A stretch of 64,000 nt of DNA from Actinomycetota bacterium (lineage in GTDB: Bacteria > Actinomycetota > Actinomycetes > Mycobacteriales > SCTD01), in the NCBI GenBank assembly GCA_033851845.1, contig JAWWOH010000036.1, positions 3,945 to 67,944 on the forward strand, written 5' to 3'. The translations under genes were made by a program, and so were the position numbers. Below, piece after piece: positions 53,689 through 63,950 of the stretch. Under the pieces are notes generated by a model. That model worked only from the letters and a program-made list of their open reading frames with translations. It did no database searches and was not told the origin of the DNA. Position 1 is the first letter of the stretch, and each line of letters starts with the position of its first letter.

Positions 53689-55212
53689 GTGGAGCGACGT
53701 CAGCTGGTCCTGGTCGCGACCTGCTTGGCGTCGTTCACCGCCACCCTCGACAACACCGTCGTCGCGGTCGCGCTCCGCGACATCCAGCGCGACCTGGGCG
53801 CGGGCGTGTCCGGCCTGCAGGGCGTCGTCACCGGTTACACCGTCGCCCTTGCGGCACTGCTGCTCACCGGCGGCGCGCTCGCCGACATCGCGGGTCGACG
53901 CCGTGTCTTCGTGACCGGCCTCGCGATCTTTGCCGGCGCGTCCGTCGCCTGTGCCGCCGCGGGATCGGTGTCCGCGCTGGTGGCCGCCCGGGTCGTGCAG
54001 GGTGCCGGTGCGGCGCTGGTGATCCCCGGCGGGCTGGCCGTCCTGGCCGAGGCATATCCCGACGCCGGGCCACGCGCCCGCGCCGTCGGCAGCTGGGCCG
54101 CCACCGGCGCGCTTGCCCTCGCGGTCGGTCCCGTCGTCGGGGGAGTGCTGGTCGCGGCGCACGGCTGGCAGCTCGTCTTCGAGGTCAACGTCCCGCTCTG
54201 CATCGCGATCGCGGTCGTCGTGCTGCTCGCTCCACGTGGCGCACCCCGGGTCGCCGGCCGCCGCCTCGATCTCCCCGGTCAGGTGCTCGTCGCGCTCGGC
54301 CTGGCCATGACGACGTACGCCGTCGTCCTCGTCGGCCGCGACGGCTGGACGCGTGCCGTCGCGATCAGCGCAGCCGTCGGGGTGTTGGCGCTGGTCGGGT
54401 TCGCGCTCGTCGAGCGGCGTACTGCCGATCCGCTCCTGCCGCACGGCCTGTTCGCGGAGCGGACATTTCTCGGTACGACGACAGCCGCCCTCGCGGCCAG
54501 CCTCGCGGTGTTCGTGCTGCTGGTCTTCCTCAGCCTGTTCCTGCAGCTCGTCCAGCAGCGGGACGCACTACCGGCAGCCTTGCGACTGCTGCCCCTCACC
54601 GTGGGGCTCGTCGTCGTAGCCGTCCCGGCTGCGCGCTTCGCTCATCGGCGCGGTCCACGACTGCCCGTCGTCGGCGGGCTCGTCCTTTCCGCCATCGGGC
54701 TGCTGCTACTGGCAGGTGCGCTCTCGCCGGGCATCGGTGCGGCCGCGCTCGGGCTGCTGCTGGGCGCGATCGGTGTCGGCCTCGGCCTCACCGGCGCTCC
54801 GGTCGTCGCCGCATCACTCGATGCGGTGACGAGTGAACGACGAGGACTGGCGGCGGCTGTCGTCAACGCGGCGCGAGAGCTCGGCGGGATCATCGCGATC
54901 GGTGGCCTGGGCGCCGTCGTGGTGTCCCGGCTTGCTGCCGACCTCACCAGCCGCCTGGTCGCCCTGGGCGTGACGCCGGCCAAGTCGGCCGTGCTCGTCG
55001 ACGCGGTGCTGCGCGGCGAGGACCAGACCGAGGTCGTCAAGCGGGCCGGACCGACTGTGGGCCTGGACGCGCTGCTCAAGCTGCGCCATCTCGCGGCGGT
55101 CTCCTACGTCAACAGCACCCGGCTCGCCCTCACCGGCGCCGCCGCCCTGCTCCTCGCCGCTGCCGCCGTCGCTGCCACGACGCTCCGCCGTACGCCCACG
55201 GGCCGACGCTGA
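53689..55212 (+). CDS. MFS efflux transporter (DHA2/EmrB-like)
   Basis: LDNTVVAVAL, GGALADIAGRRR, ARVVQGAG, GPVVGG, NVP; many TM helices. Confidence 0.92.
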   Translation: MERRQLVLVATCLASFTATLDNTVVAVALRDIQRDLGAGVSGLQGVVTGYTVALAALLLTGGALADIAGRRRVFVTGLAIFAGASVACAAAGSVSALVAARVVQGAGAALVIPGGLAVLAEAYPDAGPRARAVGSWAATGALALAVGPVVGGVLVAAHGWQLVFEVNVPLCIAIAVVVLLAPRGAPRVAGRRLDLPGQVLVALGLAMTTYAVVLVGRDGWTRAVAISAAVGVLALVGFALVERRTADPLLPHGLFAERTFLGTTTAALAASLAVFVLLVFLSLFLQLVQQRDALPAALRLLPLTVGLVVVAVPAARFAHRRGPRLPVVGGLVLSAIGLLLLAGALSPGIGAAALGLLLGAIGVGLGLTGAPVVAASLDAVTSERRGLAAAVVNAARELGGIIAIGGLGAVVVSRLAADLTSRLVALGVTPAKSAVLVDAVLRGEDQTEVVKRAGPTVGLDALLKLRHLAAVSYVNSTRLALTGAAALLLAAAAVAATTLRRTPTGRR

Positions 55213-56087: not shown

Positions 56088-57110
56088 CTACAAGCCCTCG
56101 TGGACCGTGTCGACGATGAGCTTCAGCACATCTGGATCGGTCTCAGGGAGCACGCCGTGGCCGAGGTTGAACACGTGTCCCTCGGCCGCCTTGCCGGCCT
56201 CGAGCACGTCGTGGACCTTGCTGCGTACGACGTCTGCCGGGGCGAACACCAGCGTCGGGTCGAGGTTTCCCTGCACGGCGCGGCCCGGCCCGATCCGGCG
56301 GACCGCTTCGTCGAGCGGCACCCGCCAGTCGACCCCGACGACGTCGGCACCGGCCTCTCCCAGGTCGTGCAGCAGCTCGCCCGTGCCGACGCCGAAGTGG
56401 ATGCGCGGCACGTCGCTCACTCCGGCCAGCACTCGCGCCGAGTGCGGCTGGACGAAGCGCCGGTAGTCGGCGGCCGGCAGCGCACCGACCCATGAGTCGA
56501 ACAGCTGCACTGCCGACGCACCCGCGTCGATCTGCACGCGCAGGAACGCCAGCGTGATCTGGGCCAGTCGCTCGAGCAACGCCGACCAGAGCTGCGGGTC
56601 GCCGTACATCAAGGCCTTGGTCTTGGCGTGGTTCTTCGACGGACCGCCCTCGACGAGGTACGACGCCAGGGTGAAGGGCGCGCCGGCGAAGCCGATCAGC
56701 GGTGTCGCGGCAAGCTCACCGACCAGCTGACCGACGGACTGGGCGATGTACGGCACGTCGGCCGGAGTGAGCTCGCGCGGCAGGTCCACCGAGGTCCGGA
56801 CCGGCGACGCGACAACCGGCCCGACGCCGGGAACGATGTCGAGGTCGACACCAACGGCCTTCAGCGGCACCACGATGTCGCTGAAGAAGATCGCCGCGTC
56901 GACGCCGAGCCGGCGCACCGGCTGCAACGTGATCTCGGTGACCATGTCGGGCTGCATGCAGCTGTCGAGCATCGCGGTGCCCTCGCGCAGCTTGCGGTAC
57001 TCCGGCAGCGCCCGGCCGGCCTGTCGCATGAACCAGACGGGGGTGTGCGGTACGGGCTCGCGGCGGCAGGCGCGCAGGAAGGCCGAGTCGTACGACGGGG
57101 GCGTGGTCAT
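56088..57110 (-). CDS. hemE: Uroporphyrinogen decarboxylase
   Basis: [47 protein letters not shown]. Confidence 0.97.
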
Positions 57111-57138
57111 GGGCGCCGATCGTCCCATGTCACCGAAG

Positions 57139-58364: not shown

Positions 58365-58964
58365 GTGACCGTGCAGCTCGAACCGCCACCGGGGCCGGGC
58401 ACGGCGCCGGAGGCCTTCCGCGCCGCCGCCGCGACGCTGTTCGCCGCGTTGGCCGAATCCGGACGCCCCGGGCTGGCCCTGCGCGAGGTCCCGGCCCCCC
58501 GCAAGCTCGCGCCGTACGCCATCGCGGTGGCGGCCGACGTCACCCGCGGCGACGCCGACGTGGCAAGTGGTCGCTTCGTGGTGCTGCACGACCCGGCGGG
58601 GCAGGACGGCTGGCGTGGTGACACCCGCATCGTGGCGTTCGTGTCGGCCGACGTGGAGTCGGAGATGGCTGCCGACCCGGCACTGGCGGCCGTCGGCTGG
58701 TCCTGGCTGACCGAGTCGCTGACCGACCGCGGCGCGCTGCACACCGCGGCGGGTGGCACGGTCACCCGCACGGTCTCCTGCCGGTTCGGGAGCCTCGAGG
58801 ACCCCGAGGAGGAGAGCGAGGTCGAGATCCGCGCGTCGTGGACCGCCCTGCCACTGGCGGACGGGACCCTCGACCTCGGTGAGCACCTCCGGGCCTGGTG
58901 CGACCTGCTGTGTGCGACCGCGGGCCTACCGCCCCCCGGCGTCGCGGCCCTGCACCCGCGTTGA
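58365..58964 (+). CDS. DUF3000 family protein
   Basis: VPAPRKLAPY, GRFVVLHDP.GQ..W, VGWSWL, GGTVT, EIRASW, AGLPP. Confidence 0.9.
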   Translation: MTVQLEPPPGPGTAPEAFRAAAATLFAALAESGRPGLALREVPAPRKLAPYAIAVAADVTRGDADVASGRFVVLHDPAGQDGWRGDTRIVAFVSADVESEMAADPALAAVGWSWLTESLTDRGALHTAAGGTVTRTVSCRFGSLEDPEEESEVEIRASWTALPLADGTLDLGEHLRAWCDLLCATAGLPPPGVAALHPR

Positions 58965-60101
58965 CGCGGCCTCGACGGTGCGGGGCACCCTCGGCTTGCG
59001 TTCGCCGCGCTGCGCGGGCAGCCCGACGGGGGTCGGCGGAGCGAGTGATGCCGGCCGCGGCAGGCGAAGCGTGAGTGTCGTCCCCTCACCCGGCGCGCTC
59101 GCCACGTCGAGGCCGCCGCCGGACAGTCGCGCCCGTTCGCGGAGCAGGCCGAGACCGACGTGCCGGCCGCGGTCGGGGCGCACCTTGTCGGGGTCGAAGC
59201 CGGGACCCTCGTCGCGCACGACGGCGAAGACCACGTCCTCCTCGACGCGCAGGCTGACGTAGGCGTCATCGACGTCGGCGTGCTTCACGACGTTGAGCAG
59301 CGCCTCCTGGAAGAACCGGTAGACGGTGATCGCGGATGCCAGAGGCAGCGGGTACGGCGAGTCCGGCCAGCTCACGTGCACCTGGAGGCCGTACCGCTGG
59401 TTCATGTCGGCGCGCAGGTTGCCCACCGCTGATGCGAGGTCGCCATCGCGAAGCGCCGGCGGCCGGGTGCGCGCCATGACGGCGCGGACCTGCTCCTCGG
59501 CGTCCTCGACGTAGTCCGAGAGCTTGGCCAACTCCGCGGCCGTCGACGGGTTGGTAGCGAGCAGGCCGCGGGCGATCATCAACGACTGCGCAACGGTGTC
59601 GTGCAGCTCAGCGGCCAGCTGGCCGCGGGCCCCCTCCTCGGCCGTCACCAGGCCGGACACGAGCTCGAAGACCCCGGCACCGGCGGTCTCGGCGTCGCGG
59701 CGATGCCGCTCGCCGACCTCGTCACCGACCCGCACCCGCAGGTGCAGTGCGTCGAGAACCCTTGCCAGCTCGGACATTTCGGTGCTCGCCAGTGCCGTGA
59801 TCCGCCGCCGCCCCGGGCGGCCCACGGGGGCGGACGGATCGTGCAGCCGCTGCACAGCGTCGGAGTGCAGTCCGCGCAACCCGGTTGCCAGCCGGCTCGC
59901 CGCGATGACCTGTACGACGGACAGTGCGAGGCCGACCGTGGTCCCGGCAGCGAGTGCCTCGACGGCGTGCAGGGTGAGCGCCCCCGAGGCACGCAGCAGT
60001 GCGGCGGCGACACCTCCGACGATGAGCACCGAACCCGCCGACAGCGCACCTGCCAAGACAGCGAGCGGCAGCCGGCCGCGGCGGGGGCTCGCCTCGGTCA
60101 C
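58926..60101 (-). CDS. NarX-type (HisKA_3) histidine kinase with two closely spaced TM helices
   Basis: AELHDTVAQSL, QEALLNVVKHA, RDEGPGF, GLGLLRER; GTG at 60101 overlaps the upstream TGA. Confidence 0.9.
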   Translation of the reverse strand: MTEASPRRGRLPLAVLAGALSAGSVLIVGGVAAALLRASGALTLHAVEALAAGTTVGLALSVVQVIAASRLATGLRGLHSDAVQRLHDPSAPVGRPGRRRITALASTEMSELARVLDALHLRVRVGDEVGERHRRDAETAGAGVFELVSGLVTAEEGARGQLAAELHDTVAQSLMIARGLLATNPSTAAELAKLSDYVEDAEEQVRAVMARTRPPALRDGDLASAVGNLRADMNQRYGLQVHVSWPDSPYPLPLASAITVYRFFQEALLNVVKHADVDDAYVSLRVEEDVVFAVVRDEGPGFDPDKVRPDRGRHVGLGLLRERARLSGGGLDVASAPGEGTTLTLRLPRPASLAPPTPVGLPAQRGERKPRVPRTVEAASTRVQGRDAGGR

Positions 60102-61543
60102 CGGAGCACGCCCGTGGTCGTCCAGTCGGTCGCGGGGCGCGTCGACGTCGGCGCGTCCGTCACCCGGCTGCCGCCGGTCACGCCGATCAGATCCGGCTCG
60201 GCGGCCAGTGCGATCGCACCCAGCAGCGAGGCCACGGCGCGCTCGACCAGGTGCAGCTCCTCGACGATGTCGTCGGCACCACCCGCGCTCTCGGCCAGTC
60301 GGGCCAGCCGGTCGGCGGACTCGCGCAGCACCTGCAGCGCGGGTGCGGTCGCGGCCCCGATGTCGCCGAGGTTCTTGGCGGCCTCGCCGGCGGCGGCGAC
60401 CTGGTCGGATGCGGCCTGGTGGCGAACGGTGAGGTCGGCGACCGACAGCCACGACTCGGCCTGGCCGACAAGCACCTGGGCAAGACGGATCTCACGGCGG
60501 CCGAAGCCGGCAGAGCCGCGCGGACGACGGGCGATGAGCACGGCCAGTGGCGCGTTGGGCTCACCGAGGACGGCAGAGCACCAGGGCCGCTCGTCCTCAG
60601 TGCCGGTGGCGACACCGCGCGCACCGAGCGCACGCAGGACCCACGGCTCGTCGAAGGCCTCGGGGTCGACGCGGCGCCGCTCGGGCACACCGCTCTCGTC
60701 GCCGGCGTACCGCACTGGACCGTCGGCGGCGAGCACGACCATCTCGACGTCGGCACCGCCGAACAGCCGCGCCGCCGCGGTGACGACGACCTGCGCGGAC
60801 ACGTCCGTCGACCGACCGGTGGCCTGCTCCTGGCCGCGGGCGAGCTCTGCGAACAGGCGGGCTTCCGCCGTACGCCGGGTCTGCTGGTCGTACGACGACC
60901 ACAGCAGAGCAAGCGGCACGAGCAGGCCCAGCAGGCCCAGCGGCGCCGTCGTCGCCAGGAAGGCAGCGAGCAGACCGATGGAGGAGTTGCCCGCGGTATG
61001 CACGGCTGACAGTGGCGCGCTCGACGCGAGGAGCGGGATGAGCTTGCGGCGGCTGGTCAGCGAGACCGCGACACCGACGAGGGTGTGGTTGACCGCGAAG
61101 AACACGGCCATGCCGGCGATGGCACCGGGGATGTTGCCGCCGAGCAGCGAGGCGACGTAGGACCCGGCCGCGGTCGACAGCGCGAACTGCGCGACGTTGA
61201 ACTCCAGCTTCAGCCGGGGCTGATGCCGCACGGACTGCGCGATCGCGACACCGGCGAGCACCGCAGCGACGGACCAGGCGCCGGTCGAGGCGACCCAGGC
61301 CGCGCCGAGTGCGCCCTCGGTCAGGGAGAAGGTCCACCGCTGCCGCCCGAACTGCAGGTGAACCACGGCGACCTCGGAGATGGCCACGACCGTGGCGAGC
61401 AGCAGCGGCGCCCACCACGCGACGTCGCCCCAACCCGCGAGGACGCACAGCAGCACCGCGGCGACCATGCTGATGCCGGCGACGAGGCGCACCCGGCCGG
61501 CCGGCCCCGCCCAACGGCGGGGCGGGCTCACGACGCGGGCCAT
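60098..61543 (-). CDS. Multi-TM membrane sensor-like protein with cytoplasmic GAF-like domain and helical tail, no catalytic output domain
   Basis: About 7 hydrophobic helices with SE...HLQF....FSLTE and KLEFNVAQ; GAF-like region (AAARLFG...LAVL...FGRREIRLAQVL); ATG at 61543 after GGAG. Confidence 0.8.
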   Translation of the reverse strand: MARVVSPPRRWAGPAGRVRLVAGISMVAAVLLCVLAGWGDVAWWAPLLLATVVAISEVAVVHLQFGRQRWTFSLTEGALGAAWVASTGAWSVAAVLAGVAIAQSVRHQPRLKLEFNVAQFALSTAAGSYVASLLGGNIPGAIAGMAVFFAVNHTLVGVAVSLTSRRKLIPLLASSAPLSAVHTAGNSSIGLLAAFLATTAPLGLLGLLVPLALLWSSYDQQTRRTAEARLFAELARGQEQATGRSTDVSAQVVVTAAARLFGGADVEMVVLAADGPVRYAGDESGVPERRRVDPEAFDEPWVLRALGARGVATGTEDERPWCSAVLGEPNAPLAVLIARRPRGSAGFGRREIRLAQVLVGQAESWLSVADLTVRHQAASDQVAAAGEAAKNLGDIGAATAPALQVLRESADRLARLAESAGGADDIVEELHLVERAVASLLGAIALAAEPDLIGVTGGSRVTDAPTSTRPATDWTTTGVLR

Positions 61544-63045
61544 GCCGCAGCACTCCAGGACGAGGCGGACCAGGACGACGCGCTCCACGATGAGGCCGAC
61601 CACGAGGAGGCGGTCCAGCTCTCGCCGTTCCAGGTCGCCCCGGACCACGACGACGCGGACCACGAAGAGGCGCTCCACGACGAGGCACTCCAGGAGGAGG
61701 CCGACCACGAGGAGGCATCGAACGTGCCCTCACCGGTGAGGTCGCCGCCGCCGTCGAGCGCGGCGCCGTCCGGACCGGAGACGAGCTTGTCGGTCGGGTC
61801 GAGCAGCCCCCGGCCGTCGCGCAAGCCGGGCAGGTCGCGCGCCGAGGCGCGCAGCGAGGCCTTGACCTGGGCAGGGGTGGCGGTCGGGTGCGCCTGCAGC
61901 AACAGGGCGGCGGCGCCGCTCACGACCGCGGTCGCCTGGCTGGTGCCGGTGCCGCGCCACAGGCCACCGCCGGCGTACGCCGAGGGGTTCTGCCGGGCAA
62001 CGAGGGCGTCCTCGGGCAGCACGCCGAGGACGCTGACGCCGTTGGCGACGAGGTCGGGCTTCTGCACGCCGGCCGCGACGGCGCTGCCGCTGAACGGCGC
62101 GACGACCGGCTTCTTGCCCTTGAGGTCGGCTGCACCGACGGTCAGCGCCCGCGGGTCGAAGCCCGGGTCCCCCACCTCGTCGGCGCTGTTGCCGGCCGAG
62201 ACGACCGGCACGACGCCGGCCTGCGCCACCCGCTCGACCGCCGCGTTCAGCGGGTCGGCGCCGTAGCCGTTGCCGGGCCGGCTGTGGCTGAAGGACAGGT
62301 TGGCGATGTCGATCGTGTCCGCGTGCGCCGTGACCCAGTCCAGACCGGCGACGACCGAGGACAGCGACGTCTCGCCAGAGGCGTCGGCGACCTTCACGAC
62401 CACGACGGTCGCGGCGGGCGCGATGCCGACGGCCATGTTGCCCGTGCCCTCCACCGGGCCGCCGGCGACAAGGCTGGCCATGAACGTCCCGTGCCCGTGG
62501 CCGTCACCGAACCGGCCGGACGTGACCGGCGCGGCACCCGTGGTGAGCGGGGACGTGTCGACGCCGTCGACGAGCCGGCCCGACGCGCGGTCGAGCGCCT
62601 GGGTGTCCGCGACGCCCGTGTCGACGATGGCGACCGTCACGCCACGACCGGAGCCCTTCTTGCCGGCCGATCCGCCGAGGCCGTCCGCGGCCGAGACGCC
62701 GGTGCCACTTCCGCCGGGCCGGCCGGACAGCACCACCCGGTCGTCGGGGAAGACGCCCAGGACGCCGCGGGCTGCTGCCAGCCGGGCCAGCGCAGCCGGC
62801 GTACCGCGAACCACGGCCTCGCTGATCGCGTGCAGCTCCTGCCGCACCGAGACGCCCGGCACCGAGACGGCGGCACCGTCGTAGGCCACGACCGCCTGCA
62901 GCACCGGACCACTCCCGGCGGTCAGCGTGGTCGCGCCGAGCAGCGCGACCAGCGTCAGGGACACGCCGGAACGGCGGGCCACGGCGGGGAAGACGGACAA
63001 AGCAGGGCTCCAGGGCGGGCGGGGCATACCGAATCTGTTGCTCAC
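61528..63045 (-). CDS. Secreted S8 subtilase with C-terminal Trp-pentapeptide repeat tail
   Basis: Triad IVDTG / HGHGT / GTGTSQA; SAGN oxyanion motif; KPDLVA; N-terminal hydrophobic segment and propeptide-like region. Confidence 0.92.
   Translation of the reverse strand: MSNRFGMPRPPWSPALSVFPAVARRSGVSLTLVALLGATTLTAGSGPVLQAVVAYDGAAVSVPGVSVRQELHAISEAVVRGTPAALARLAAARGVLGVFPDDRVVLSGRPGGSGTGVSAADGLGGSAGKKGSGRGVTVAIVDTGVADTQALDRASGRLVDGVDTSPLTTGAAPVTSGRFGDGHGHGTFMASLVAGGPVEGTGNMAVGIAPAATVVVVKVADASGETSLSSVVAGLDWVTAHADTIDIANLSFSHSRPGNGYGADPLNAAVERVAQAGVVPVVSAGNSADEVGDPGFDPRALTVGAADLKGKKPVVAPFSGSAVAAGVQKPDLVANGVSVLGVLPEDALVARQNPSAYAGGGLWRGTGTSQATAVVSGAAALLLQAHPTATPAQVKASLRASARDLPGLRDGRGLLDPTDKLVSGPDGAALDGGGDLTGEGTFDASSWSASSWSASSWSASSWSASSWSGATWNGESWTASSWSASSWSASSWSASSWSAAAWPAS
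61537..61716 (-). repeat. 12 x 15-bp coding repeat encoding (ASSWS)5-GATWN-GESWT-(ASSWS)4-AAAWP
   Basis: TGG codon every 15 nt; synonymous codons vary between units. Confidence 0.95.
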
Positions 63046-63254
63046 ACGTCGGCATCTGCCGGGCCCGACTCCAGCGTTCGCGGCGCTTGTCCCCCGTTCG
63101 GCCTACTGCACCTGCCCGCGCCACGCTCGGCCGGTCGGGTCAGTCGATCTGTGCCCGGGACTACAGCCACGGTGGGTAGCGGCCGAGACAGAGAGTGAAC
63201 GGCGCGCCCAGGCGCGCTGACATGAAGTGCCGAACACATGACACGGAGGACGCG

Positions 63255-63950
63255 GTGGCAGCCGGTCTCGACCACGCGATCGACAGCATCCCGGCCCAGG
63301 GCACGTCGGAAGACGCCCCTGGCTTCACGGCGATGGTCGTCGACGACCACCCGCTCGTCCGCGAGTCGATGGTGGCGCGACTGAAGATGATGGGTGCCCG
63401 CGAGGTCGTCGAGGCCGCCACCATCGGTGAGGCCCGCGCCCGCGCCAACCTGTCCGGCCCCCGTGAGCTCTGCGTCCTCGACCTCGGCCTGCCCGATGGC
63501 TCCGGCCTCGACCTGCTCGCCGACCTGCGCTCCGCCGGCTGGCAGCGGCTCGTCGTGCTGTCCGCCGCCGACGACCCGTACTCGGTCCGCGCCGCCTTCG
63601 TGGCCGGCGCCCAGGGCTACCTGCTCAAGTCCGCCTCCCCGCTCGTCGTGGCTGACGGCGTACGCCGCGTCCTCGACGGCGGCGTGTACGCCGACCCGTC
63701 GGTCGCCTCGCTGCTGGCCGCGGGCCTGCGCGGTGGTCCGGTCGACACCGGCGTCTCCGAGCTGTCCGGTCGCGAGATCGAGGTGCTCCGACTCGTCGCC
63801 GACGGCCAGTCGAACAAGCAGATCGGCGACGTCCTCGGCCTGTCGGCCCTGACCGTCAAGAGCCACCTGGCCCGAATCGCCCGCAAGCTGGGCACCGGCG
63901 ACCGCGCCGAGATGGTCGCGCTCGCCATGCGCGCCGGCGTCATCCGCTAA
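63255..63950 (+). CDS. NarL/LuxR-family response regulator
   Basis: VVDDHPLVR, LDLGLPDGSG, GYLLK, LSGREIEVL...SNKQIG..L.LS..TVKSHL; GTG at 63255 after GGAGG. Confidence 0.93.
   Translation: MAAGLDHAIDSIPAQGTSEDAPGFTAMVVDDHPLVRESMVARLKMMGAREVVEAATIGEARARANLSGPRELCVLDLGLPDGSGLDLLADLRSAGWQRLVVLSAADDPYSVRAAFVAGAQGYLLKSASPLVVADGVRRVLDGGVYADPSVASLLAAGLRGGPVDTGVSELSGREIEVLRLVADGQSNKQIGDVLGLSALTVKSHLARIARKLGTGDRAEMVALAMRAGVIR

Follow-up and report, generated by a model that had tools for sequence, protein, structure and literature searches.

The subtilase locus described here is best read as a four-part signalling pathway whose extracellular input is a protease with a Trp-repeat tail, and we put the probability of this reading as a whole at roughly 55%. 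It lies in the window, the 64,000-nt stretch of an Actinomycetota genome that was analysed. Domain identities, gene coupling, conservation and a one-to-one pairing of protease and sensor genes within the genome are established directly. The features are as follows.

58926..60101, minus: histidine kinase, 391 aa; its GTG start shares GTGA with the preceding stop
59052..59330, minus: HATPase_c catalytic domain of the kinase (Pfam, E=8.3e-13)
59454..59627, minus: HisKA_3-type dimerisation/phospho-acceptor region with an E-L-H-D box (Pfam HisKA_3)
59895..60077, minus: two TM segments of the kinase, connecting loop of ~7 residues (hydropathy)
60098..60508, minus: C-terminal helical hairpin of the sensor (H349-418, H423-448), W-T-T-T-G-x-L end and stop codon (AF2)
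60509..60808, minus: cytoplasmic GAF-fold domain of the sensor, residues ~246-345 (VIA, Foldseek)
60809..61543, minus: membrane sensor domain, residues 1-245, MASE9-like, K-x-x-F-N, six TM helices and a re-entrant hairpin (AF2)
61528..63000, minus: S8 subtilase gene (Pfam Peptidase_S8), probable TTG 63000 start, 490 aa
61531..61713, minus: Trp pentapeptide-repeat tail, 12 units, nine of them S-S-W-S-A (sequence, Tandem Repeats Finder, AF2)
61831..62649, minus: S8 catalytic domain, residues 133-405 (Pfam)
62746..62901, minus: propeptide-like beta-alpha-beta segment, residues ~49-100 (AF2 secondary structure)
62908..63000, minus: S8 signal peptide, Arg-Arg n-region, then hydrophobic core (read from sequence)
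63001..63254, no strand: divergent intergenic region with conserved blocks CTGTAG, CCGAACGGGGGACA, CTGGAGT and TGCCGA (alignment of loci with and without S8)
63195..63950, plus: NarL/FixJ-type response regulator (Pfam Response_reg E=4.5e-15, GerE E=3.1e-18)

Locus organization

The minus strand encodes the S8 subtilase, a 481-aa membrane protein (60098-61543) and a HisKA_3-type kinase in three translationally coupled genes, and the NarL-type regulator is divergent from this operon on the plus strand. All four genes are where the first-pass annotation had placed them, and the overlaps it reported among the minus-strand genes are overlaps of start and stop codons. The S8 stop overlaps the membrane-protein start (ATG 61543 or GTG 61531), and GTGA at 60098-60101 joins the membrane-protein stop to the kinase start. 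In 47/47 loci the kinase gene comes directly after the membrane-protein gene, and the two mostly overlap by GTGA or ATGA. The regulator, which probably starts at GTG 63255 after GGAGGA, had been described as divergent and NarL-type; its two Pfam domains and its divergent orientation in 40/40 loci agree. Median identity across loci is 90% for the regulator, 71% for the sensor and 57% for S8. The neighbourhood common to all loci comprises the regulator, S8, sensor, kinase and DUF3000; ORF and Pfam annotation of the locus revealed no ESX genes. The conserved intergenic blocks are found in loci with S8 and in loci without it, and the region matched no Rfam family.

A secreted subtilase with a Trp-repeat tail

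The longest S8 ORF (61528-63045) begins at GTG 63045 and encodes 505 aa, the form whose residue numbers are used here. The start is probably TTG 63000, judging from a GGAG-TTG conserved in the alignment and a 490-aa relative (P0271). The protein matches Pfam Peptidase_S8 (E=3.2e-40), and the triad that had been called intact (Asp142, His185, Ser369) is, together with Asn286, unchanged in 31/31 aligned relatives. In the AF2 model (pLDDT 80.5), residues 1-41 fall below 50 and are followed by the propeptide-like segment (E49-55, E65-71, E76-81, H83-91, E95-100; pLDDT ~90). This segment has no Pfam match; from the model we read it as inhibitor I9-like. The closest NCBIfam model is the mycosin, at a sub-threshold 117 bits versus a cut-off of 279.

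The tail carries 12 Trp residues in xxWxx units with an exact 5-residue period, as the earlier unit count had it. Tandem Repeats Finder reports 61555-61716 with period 15, 10.8 copies and 72% DNA matches. Nine units are the identical peptide, in which Ser is encoded by both TCN and AGY codons, so the peptide is under selection and not a product of DNA slippage alone. A search of the whole 3.65-Mb genome for period-5 Trp matched only four real ORFs, every one an S8, which excludes a chance origin of the period. The tail (residues 448-505) is predicted to be disordered (pLDDT <50) and matches no Pfam family at E<=10. Among the matches listed, 120/120 database proteins resembling it carry PF00082. 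Trp is never replaced in the 692 units of 67 tails and has small residues on both sides, the number of units ranges from 4 to 22, and the tail of each sensor paralog has its own unit type.

A membrane sensor and its separate kinase

The membrane protein falls below the Pfam thresholds for MASE9 and GAF, and no Pfam family matches it at E<=0.01. Its AF2 model (pLDDT 90.0) has a membrane part of six long TM helices and one short helical hairpin, then a GAF fold, and ends in a second helical hairpin, revising the earlier count of about seven TM helices to six and a re-entrant hairpin. External loops are only 2-7 residues long by AF2 and hydropathy. The K-x-x-F-N motif (K112-N116) is present in the family consensus, W474 is >=90% conserved, and the W-T-T-T-G-x-L end is likewise conserved. 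The membrane domain is a distant MASE9 relative: Pfam MASE9 scores E=0.02 and 15.3 bits against a cut-off of 24.3, and the model is matched by 9/55 relatives and by 2/16 longer relatives scanned. The predicted fold of residues ~37-202 resembles the ligand-binding ECF S-components (VIA Z 14.3-12.1; 4hzu_S Z 14.3, RibU Z 14.0, FolT and ThiT Z 12-13), although, as the tool itself cautions, helical bundles can score almost as high as a VIA Z of ~14 just by sharing an arrangement.

The suggested GAF-like domain without enzymatic output is also recovered. It aligns with 3jab_B at VIA Z 14.9 and with the DevS GAF-B domain at 14.2, the best Foldseek rows are mostly GAF domains, and the AF2 model contains no enzymatic or output domain.

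The kinase has two hydrophobic segments within residues 9-69, separated by ~7 residues (hydropathy), and thus the near-absent loop noted before. Pfam HisKA_3 matches at E=1.8e-4 and 22.4 bits, slightly under the 24-bit cut-off, and NCBIfam matches to UhpB, NarQ, LiaS (45.9 bits versus 450) and MctS are sub-threshold. The first-pass annotation proposed that the membrane protein is part of a split sensor driving this kinase. The context fits, given the invariant kinase adjacency and relatives of the membrane domain that continue directly into a kinase or a GGDEF-EAL enzyme, and supports a split sensor-kinase with the membrane protein as receptor half; physical control of the kinase is something we infer.

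Tailed subtilases pair with this sensor family

The source genome has 13 S8 matches, of which exactly 4 have period-5 Trp tails and 9 are untailed. A profile search with the membrane protein returns exactly 4 hits, and every one of them is the gene immediately after one of the tailed S8 genes; the 9 untailed S8 genes have no counterpart of this kind. Three of the four sensor genes align in hhalign with 98% probability (E ~1e-13). The paralogous sensors have GGDEF-EAL, PAS-GGDEF-EAL and GAF-PAS-HisKA-HATPase outputs in place of the split kinase found here. The module is one of several parallel ones in each genome, and its paralogs couple the protease-receptor pair to c-di-GMP enzymes or fused kinases.

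In other genomes, 36/49 informative orthologous loci retain an S8 whose tail has 6-17 Trp units and whose end meets or overlaps the sensor start. Upstream of distant paralogous sensors, an S8 with four or more Trp units is present in 32/55 regions and one with 3 units in a single region, and 18 regions have neither a tailed S8 nor a Trp-repeat ORF; related genomes are not independent samples, and these counts overstate the number of independent events. The linkage of Trp-tail subtilases to the membrane domain, whose absence the first-pass annotation had named as one way to refute its reading, is clearly found at all three levels (4/4, 36/49 and 32/55). These data favour the protease or its Trp repeat as input to this sensor family. 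The pairing turns up so frequently in related soil bacteria that the repeats could act as the signal for the sensor.

In five loci a small Trp-repeat ORF without a protease domain occupies the S8 position. In L033 it has a Shine-Dalgarno site, an ATG, a signal peptide and then four A-N-S-W-S units, and its stop overlaps the sensor GTG. The L055 ORF also has A-N-S-W-S units. The ORFs of L077 and L099 have G-G-S-W-T-F-A-D units, which in L077 vary in synonymous codons; neither has a signal peptide, leaving the extracellular route of these repeats unexplained. The case of L071 is weaker. As background, the loose repeat motif occurs in 3 segments outside S8 genes across 3.65 Mb. These ORFs point to the repeat itself as the sensor's partner.

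S8 is absent from 13/49 orthologous loci, so the sensor-kinase-regulator core persists without it. Eleven of these also lack an adjacent Trp-repeat gene, and the kinase pathway is therefore not strictly dependent on an adjacent protease. A quick tree of the orthologous group forces at least 4 gains or losses, and at least 11 lineages can do without S8.

Alternative roles for the protease

The tail could instead stay unreleased: disordered and interface-seeking, it would anchor the protease to the membrane or the sensor, like mycosin on the ESX complex. The sensor would then respond to whether a protease is bound or to what state it is in, or the protease would process another envelope substrate nearby. 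Overlapping starts and stops point to stoichiometric co-production, disorder is predicted for the tail, and its copy number varies as that of a spacer or anchor would. The closest, though sub-cut-off, NCBIfam model is mycosin, described as a tail-anchored extracellular protease in the available part of 10.1101/2023.11.02.564894. However, the repeat-only ORFs show that the catalytic domain is unneeded at that position, and the exact spacing, the residue conservation and a unit type for each paralog exceed the needs of a generic anchor. We regard this tethered co-receptor or scaffold as unlikely, if the strongest of the alternatives.

Somewhat less probable still is that S8 is operon cargo, for example an envelope-stress or nutrient-scavenging protease kept in the envelope by its tail, while the sensors answer unrelated membrane or small-molecule cues. 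MprAB-PepD and CssRS-HtrA are precedents for such co-regulated output. Loci with the core alone, the higher conservation of regulator and sensor, and intergenic blocks shared irrespective of S8 would all fit. Yet the GGDEF-EAL enzymes of the paralogous modules contain no transcription factor, so co-regulation by the module itself cannot explain the pairing there. The 4-to-4 correspondence, unmatched by the untailed S8 genes, and the repeat-only ORFs at the S8 position also argue against it.

A RiPP-like precursor modified by enzymes encoded elsewhere, or an adjacency without functional meaning, is very improbable: the core-like units recall multi-core precursors and S8 weakly matches NCBIfam PatA/PatG protease (27 bits versus 421), but the conserved neighbourhood holds no modifying enzyme and the recurrence is far above chance.

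Proposed signalling mechanism

We therefore return to the protease-fed signalling pathway. A secreted S8 subtilase, catalytically intact by sequence, would present a disordered tail of 12 [S/A]-S-W-S-[A/G] units. The coupled gene would supply a receptor without output, composed of a MASE9-like, S-component-like membrane domain almost devoid of external loops, a GAF fold and a helical hairpin. We propose that its membrane-embedded pocket recognises the Trp unit. Most probably the subtilase would cleave behind Trp, in its own tail or that of a neighbour, and free short peptides; alternatively the tail could remain attached. Autoproteolytic release of a diffusible pheromone, as the first-pass annotation had suggested, is a hypothetical part of this route. 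At P1 subtilisins prefer large residues that are hydrophobic or aromatic, and at P4 small or hydrophobic ones; the A/G-x-x-W of the tail agrees with this. The receptor would then control the coupled HisKA_3 kinase, whose membrane part is two helices and the ~7-residue loop, and the kinase would phosphorylate the divergently encoded regulator. The regulator probably acts on the common conserved intergenic region, among other targets. What we infer from this context is that binding and cleavage occur, which way the signal runs and what the regulator acts on.

Relation to known systems

Literature searches found no published description of this module, in line with the earlier remark that no characterised system has this design; its parts do have precedents. 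LytS/BtsS-type sensors have an S-component fold, and pyruvate binds inside the BtsS membrane domain, according to the part of Partipilo and Slotboom (2024) available. The LytS/BtsS/YpdA order of S-component-fold membrane domain, GAF and kinase is that of the window's parts, but the window's membrane protein has no Pfam 5TMR_LYT match, a protease gene precedes it, and the kinase is not fused to it but encoded as a HisKA_3 protein that brings two TM helices of its own. For MASE9 (PF20972), the accessible part of the Galperin and Chou 2021 preprint proposes ligand binding within the membrane and describes eight hydrophobic segments, two of them a short intramembrane hairpin, and promiscuous fusion to GGDEF-EAL and other outputs, all features seen or proposed in the window's family as well; that part mentions no protease or Trp-repeat partner. 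The window's domain differs in its score (15.3 bits versus 24.3) and in standing alone with only a GAF fold.

LiaFSR and BceRS-AB are intramembrane-sensing kinase systems with accessory membrane proteins. They share the two-TM, minimal-loop HisKA_3 kinase, NarL-type regulator and input from a neighbouring membrane protein, but the window's accessory protein is unrelated to LiaF or ABC transporters. In the Rap-Phr systems of Bacillota, extracellular S8 proteases (subtilisin, Epr and Vpr) process secreted Phr precursors into short (penta)peptide signals. Tandemly duplicated pheromone units within one propeptide are described there, in the part of Felipe-Ruiz et al. (2024) available. Unlike the window's design, Phr receptors lie in the cytoplasm and depend on import of the peptide, precursor and protease are separate genes, and there is no membrane receptor of this kind. 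The yeast alpha-factor precursor with Kex2 likewise combines a multi-copy, Trp-containing pheromone precursor with S8-family processing, but it is eukaryotic, signals through a GPCR and keeps enzyme and precursor as separate proteins. MycP of type VII secretion is, like the window's S8, an actinobacterial S8 protease, membrane-held and associated with a membrane complex; the window's S8 differs in its score (117 bits versus 279), its lack of a C-terminal TM anchor and its locus, which has a sensor-kinase pair and no ESX genes.

Domain content of the S8 protease

The protease is the first of three overlapping minus-strand genes, and a fourth gene lies on the plus strand:

61528-63045, minus strand: S8 protease ORF (Peptidase_S8 match, E=3.2e-40)
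60098-61543, minus strand: membrane protein gene, beginning at ATG 61543 or GTG 61531, in overlap with the stop of the S8 gene
58926-60101, minus strand: kinase gene
63195-63950, plus strand: regulator gene

The protease lies far above the Pfam gathering score of PF00082 (138.7 bits vs a cut-off of 21.8). The catalytic residues D142, H185 and S369 and the oxyanion N286 are unchanged in all 31 aligned sequences (the window protein, 27 orthologues and 3 paralogues), in agreement with the intact triad read by the first-pass annotation. Numbering follows the longest ORF, which begins at GTG 63045. The sequence suggests TTG 63000 as the true start, because a GGAG-TTG is conserved in the intergenic alignment and a 490-aa copy is found in the database (protein P0271). 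The AlphaFold2 model (mean pLDDT 80.5) has a confident catalytic domain, a beta-alpha-beta propeptide-like unit, and a disordered N-terminus that fits a signal peptide. The protein misses the cut-off of the mycosin equivalog TIGR03921 (117.2 bits vs 278.75). A mycosin-type C-terminal transmembrane anchor is also absent, as the protein ends in a Ser/Trp/Ala repeat that has no hydrophobic stretch and is predicted to be disordered.

An Arg-Arg pair before the hydrophobic core is kept in most of the orthologous S8 signal peptides (62908-63000), and not all paralogues share it; the pair could direct Tat export. In many tailed S8 paralogues, a further conserved stretch, ~60-100 residues long (G-T-G-S-L-E ... 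G-E-x-D-I-F-G), separates the catalytic domain from the tail, for example at loci L057 (5328-7256) and L058 (7230-8843) and in database proteins P0279 and P0286. In its place the window protease has only a short G-E-G-T-F-D-A linker.

The tryptophan-repeat tail

The tail of the window protease comprises 12 units at an exact 5-residue Trp period, as the first-pass annotation had counted, and nine of the 12 read S-S-W-S-A. The DNA copies of these units match at just 72%, and units with the same peptide are encoded with TCN as well as AGY codons for Ser, so the tail peptide is under selection. A pentapeptide-repeat beta-helix was considered and rejected: even at E<=10 the tail has no Pfam match, and AlphaFold2 models residues 448-505 with pLDDT below 50 and without strands.

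We collected 67 tails with 692 units. Trp is invariant throughout; the position before it is S, A or T in 89% of units, the position after it S, T or A in 80%, and position +2 is G or A in 83%. Tails contain 4 to 22 units, with a median of 8. When 8000 candidates from a 5.8-billion-protein collection were scored, 299 proteins of 277-884 aa matched the tail at E<=0.001, and all 120 tail-matching proteins among the matches listed carry PF00082. A search for shorter tail-bearing proteins gave 27 matches, and the seven examined are all C-terminal pieces of S8 proteases, with no stand-alone peptide among them.

Two S8 proteases with long S-S-W-S-A tails (P0312 and P0335) come from metagenome-assembled genomes (MAGs) labelled Dehalococcoidia. 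This tail type may extend beyond Actinomycetota, or these bins may be mixed. A DNA pattern of six TGG codons at period 15 was discarded as a tail detector: it matched 305 of 401 genomes with similar control counts, and is uninformative because any 15-bp tandem repeat matches it in any frame.

The membrane sensor

The membrane protein has many relatives, with 897 proteins at E<=0.001 among 8000 candidates scored and 434 representatives at the same threshold in an exhaustive search. The 120 relatives listed carry no Pfam domain, and those with a name are 'hypothetical' proteins from Mycobacteriales or Frankiales MAGs. Longer relatives have just the N-terminal 250-350 residues in common with the window protein. 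Among the 16 of these that were scanned, nine are HisKA-type histidine kinases with PAS and/or GAF domains, two are GAF-GGDEF-EAL enzymes, and two (P0243 and P0260) pass the cut-off of the membrane sensor family MASE9 (PF20972). MASE9 is also matched by nine of 55 aligned relatives at E<=0.01. The window sensor itself falls below the gathering score (15.3 bits vs 24.3, E=0.02), and 5TMR_LYT (PF07694) is missing from the families listed for it at E<=10.

The AlphaFold2 model of the sensor (pLDDT 90.0, pTM 0.76) places helices at residues 14-36, 44-58, 75-85, 89-105, 110-133, 138-164, 168-199 and 201-240. Six are long transmembrane helices and two (75-85, 89-105) form a short helical pair; the outer loops are just 2-7 residues long. 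Polar residues that are both conserved and buried in the membrane domain include E76, K112, N115 and N152. This layout matches that published for MASE9, described as having short outer loops and eight hydrophobic segments, of which two short ones make up an intramembrane hairpin (10.1101/2021.11.05.467447). In the part of that work available to us, a ligand is proposed to bind inside the membrane, and the sole characterised member named gave little information on it. After the membrane domain the model has a GAF fold and then a long helical hairpin. The GAF fold is recognised via matches to 3jab_B (Z 14.9, rmsd 3.3, 157 residues aligned) and 2vks_A (Z 14.2). No GAF family profile in Pfam reaches E<=0.01 with the window sensor; GAF-family models gave four hits among the 55 relatives. 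A Foldseek search against the PDB returned nothing at E<=0.001, its weak rows being mostly GAF domains. Of the first-pass description of a ~7-TM protein with a GAF-like domain, the GAF fold stands and the seven helices give way to six plus the hairpin.

In a structure search independent of Foldseek, all membrane-protein rows listed are S-components of ECF transporters or the related metal-transporter subunit CbiM. At least 10 S-component chains align over ~155-160 residues with Z 14.3-11.2 and rmsd 3.1-3.7, a range in which unrelated helical bundles may reach ~13-14. The best are HmpT (4hzu_S, Z 14.3) and RibU (14.0), and FolT, ThiT and PanT also appear. The predicted likeness of the membrane domain to S-components is suggestive, because helical bundles can score ~13-14 by common arrangement. 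It agrees with the fold reported for LytS/BtsS-type sensors, which are described as sharing the S-component fold and binding their ligand there (Partipilo and Slotboom 2024).

The sensor ends in a conserved W-T-T-T-G-x-L (60098-60130) exactly at the kinase gene start, with W474 at least 90% conserved. This end may be a docking motif or reflect a gene-overlap constraint.

The kinase and the divergent regulator

The sensor stop lies within a GTGA whose GTG is the start codon of the kinase. HATPase_c passes its threshold (49.2 bits), HisKA_3 reaches 22.4 bits against a cut-off of 24 with an E-L-H-D box present, and sub-threshold matches to UhpB, MctS, NarQ, MacS and LiaS span the whole core. Two hydrophobic segments lie ~7 residues apart, consistent with the earlier picture of two transmembrane helices enclosing almost no loop; the kinase itself carries no sensing domain.

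The regulator is of standard NarL/FixJ type, with Response_reg and GerE domains (56.2 and 65.6 bits, both over their cut-offs), and does not reach the NarL equivalog itself (110 bits vs 250). It is divergent in 40 of 40 loci. Its start is likely 63255 rather than 63195, because a GGAGGA-N4-GTG is conserved. A conserved extension of ~25 residues precedes the receiver domain (63195-63333).

Conservation of the locus and linkage of protease and sensor

A scan of one genome per species recovered 56 loci, all in MAGs labelled Frankiales, Mycobacteriales or Actinomycetota. In each of the 47 loci that have 900 nt or more downstream, the kinase comes after the sensor (43 by a stricter tally omitting four loci in which the kinase match starts at or before the last sensor codon), and most sensor-kinase junctions are GTGA or ATGA. 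DUF3000 is convergent in 39 of 39 loci. An S8 protease with 6-17 Trp units lies immediately upstream of the sensor in 36 of the 56; the regulator takes that place in 13, and another seven are cut off. In a quick maximum-likelihood tree built from 45 sensor proteins, loci without the S8 gene do not group together, and well-supported branches force at least four changes in S8 presence. The tree omits seven loci without upstream sequence and five with a short, split or stop-containing sensor match.

Linkage extends to the paralogues. The genome carrying the window (3.65 Mb, 88% complete) has 13 S8 matches, and a period-5 Trp search found four real ORFs in it, all S8 genes. The sensor-family profile finds exactly four genes, each immediately downstream of one of these four tailed S8 genes. 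The sensor paralogues share the membrane domain, including its K-x-x-F-N motif (hhalign probability 98%, E ~1e-13). The outputs of the other three are GGDEF-EAL, PAS-GGDEF-EAL and GAF-PAS-HisKA-HATPase. The first-pass annotation had tied Trp-tail subtilases to this membrane domain, and the two are indeed linked, in four of four cases in the window's genome and in 36 of 49 informative loci. At L057 in the same genome (contig C43, 7235-12499), a tailed S8 gene is followed by two tandem membrane GGDEF-EAL genes, the second of which has a weak likeness to the sensor domain (hhalign probability 60%, E=8.7e-5).

A sensor match was found in 142 of 401 genomes, a tally that includes three unpublished ones, from which no sequence was taken. 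For 55 weaker matches (distant sensors) from several families of the order, the upstream DNA was classified.

Genes upstream of the 55 distant sensors
S8 carrying 4 or more Trp units, its end just ahead of the sensor: 32 loci
S8 with 3 Trp units: 1 locus
Small Trp-repeat ORF: 3 loci
Region cut off: 1 locus
Neither: 18 loci

These counts are descriptive because related genomes are not independent. Orthologous loci without an adjacent repeat gene number 11 of 49, and distant sensors without one 18 of 55, which counts against a strict dependence of the sensor on such a gene. At L093 (2-3639, in sensor-forward, reverse-complement orientation), two tandem tailed S8 genes precede one sensor.

Repeat-only ORFs in place of the protease

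Two of the 13 S8-less orthologous loci have a small ORF at the S8 position. The ORF at L033 has a Shine-Dalgarno sequence, an ATG, a signal peptide ending in A-F-A, a linker and four G-A-A-N-S-W-S-V-P units, and its TGA overlaps the GTG of the sensor; in that at L055, the unit A-N-S-W-S occurs seven times, with spacers. The distant sensors at L077 and L099 are preceded by a small ORF in which G-G-S-W-T-F-A-D recurs five to six times. At L077 this ORF is ~52 aa long and lacks a signal peptide, and its units differ in their Ser and Gly codons. The distant sensor at L071 has a weaker array, G-A-Q-W-G-Q-L-D-R. The background of the loose motif is three non-S8 segments in the 3.65 Mb of the window's genome; one of them, on contig C37, proved to be an off-frame chance feature.

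A candidate peptide-signalling module

Regulation of the protease by the module cannot explain the pairing of protease and sensor, because the GGDEF-EAL modules come without a transcription factor. Judging by the repeat-only ORFs, the conserved partner of the sensor would be the Trp unit. Together with the near absence of outer receptor surface and the S-component-like, polar-lined core of the predicted membrane domain, these ORFs favour recognition of the Trp unit by that domain. The GAF fold and the helical hairpin would then relay the signal from the membrane domain to the sensor-less kinase, which would hand it to the regulator.

The invariant Trp and, three positions earlier, a small residue suit the P1 and P4 preferences of subtilisins. 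Self-cleavage of the tail into short peptides is plausible by this analogy. In Bacillota, tandem pheromone units are described as being excised by extracellular proteases (Felipe-Ruiz et al. 2024).

A bolder reading, to which we give a probability of about 0.3, is that Actinobacteria of this order operate several orthogonal, genetically encoded Trp-peptide signalling channels. Each secreted subtilase would be its own multi-copy pheromone precursor, cutting its tail into xxWxx peptides. These would lodge in the membrane-embedded, S-component-like pocket of the cognate MASE9-like receptor, which would drive a two-component pathway in the window and c-di-GMP turnover in the paralogues. None of the genes recognised among the conserved neighbours is a dedicated precursor-processing or export gene of the Agr or ComQXP type.

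Each part of the module belongs to a known family or is distantly related to one. We found no description in the literature of a tailed S8 protease with a MASE9-like sensor, including the split-kinase form, in line with the first-pass remark that no such system is characterised; supplements to papers on MASE9 and S-components may list related architectures. The locus can be filed as a variant under accessory-protein-dependent, intramembrane-type two-component sensing, and there is a substantial chance that the module is a new peptide-signalling class. The ligands of many 'MASE' membrane sensor domains are a long-standing question. Here a whole sub-family of MASE9-like sensors comes with an encoded extracellular partner of simple, synthesisable sequence, and the ligand question therefore becomes directly testable by experiment. 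Orthogonal Trp-peptide channels, if real, would add a new class of signalling, between cells or by protease activity, and a MASE-type domain would have a ligand class assigned to it for the first time. Should the repeat prove to be the signal, secreted proteolysis would be tied to two-component and c-di-GMP signalling in soil Actinomycetota that are abundant and mostly uncultured, and the orthogonal peptide-receptor pairs could serve as engineering parts. Even if the tail is an anchor only, the conserved complex of protease and sensor would add a new arrangement of accessory proteins to those of intramembrane-sensing kinases.

Intergenic region and neighbouring genes

The GC content of the region is 0.72-0.75. 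The divergent intergenic region (63001-63254) contains the conserved blocks CTGTAG, CCGAACGGGGGACA, CTGGAGT and TGCCGA, which are common to loci with and without S8 and may act as promoters, as sites for the regulator or as a leader. An Rfam scan of 62850-63350 returned a chance row alone (E=0.93). The neighbouring genes look ordinary and include an EamA exporter, a hemE-like ORF (56088-57128) and a transporter-like ORF (53689-55212); the Pfam scan of neighbours covered the EamA and DUF3000 genes. At their 3' ends, the kinase gene and the DUF3000 gene convergent with it have 39 nt in common (58926-58964).
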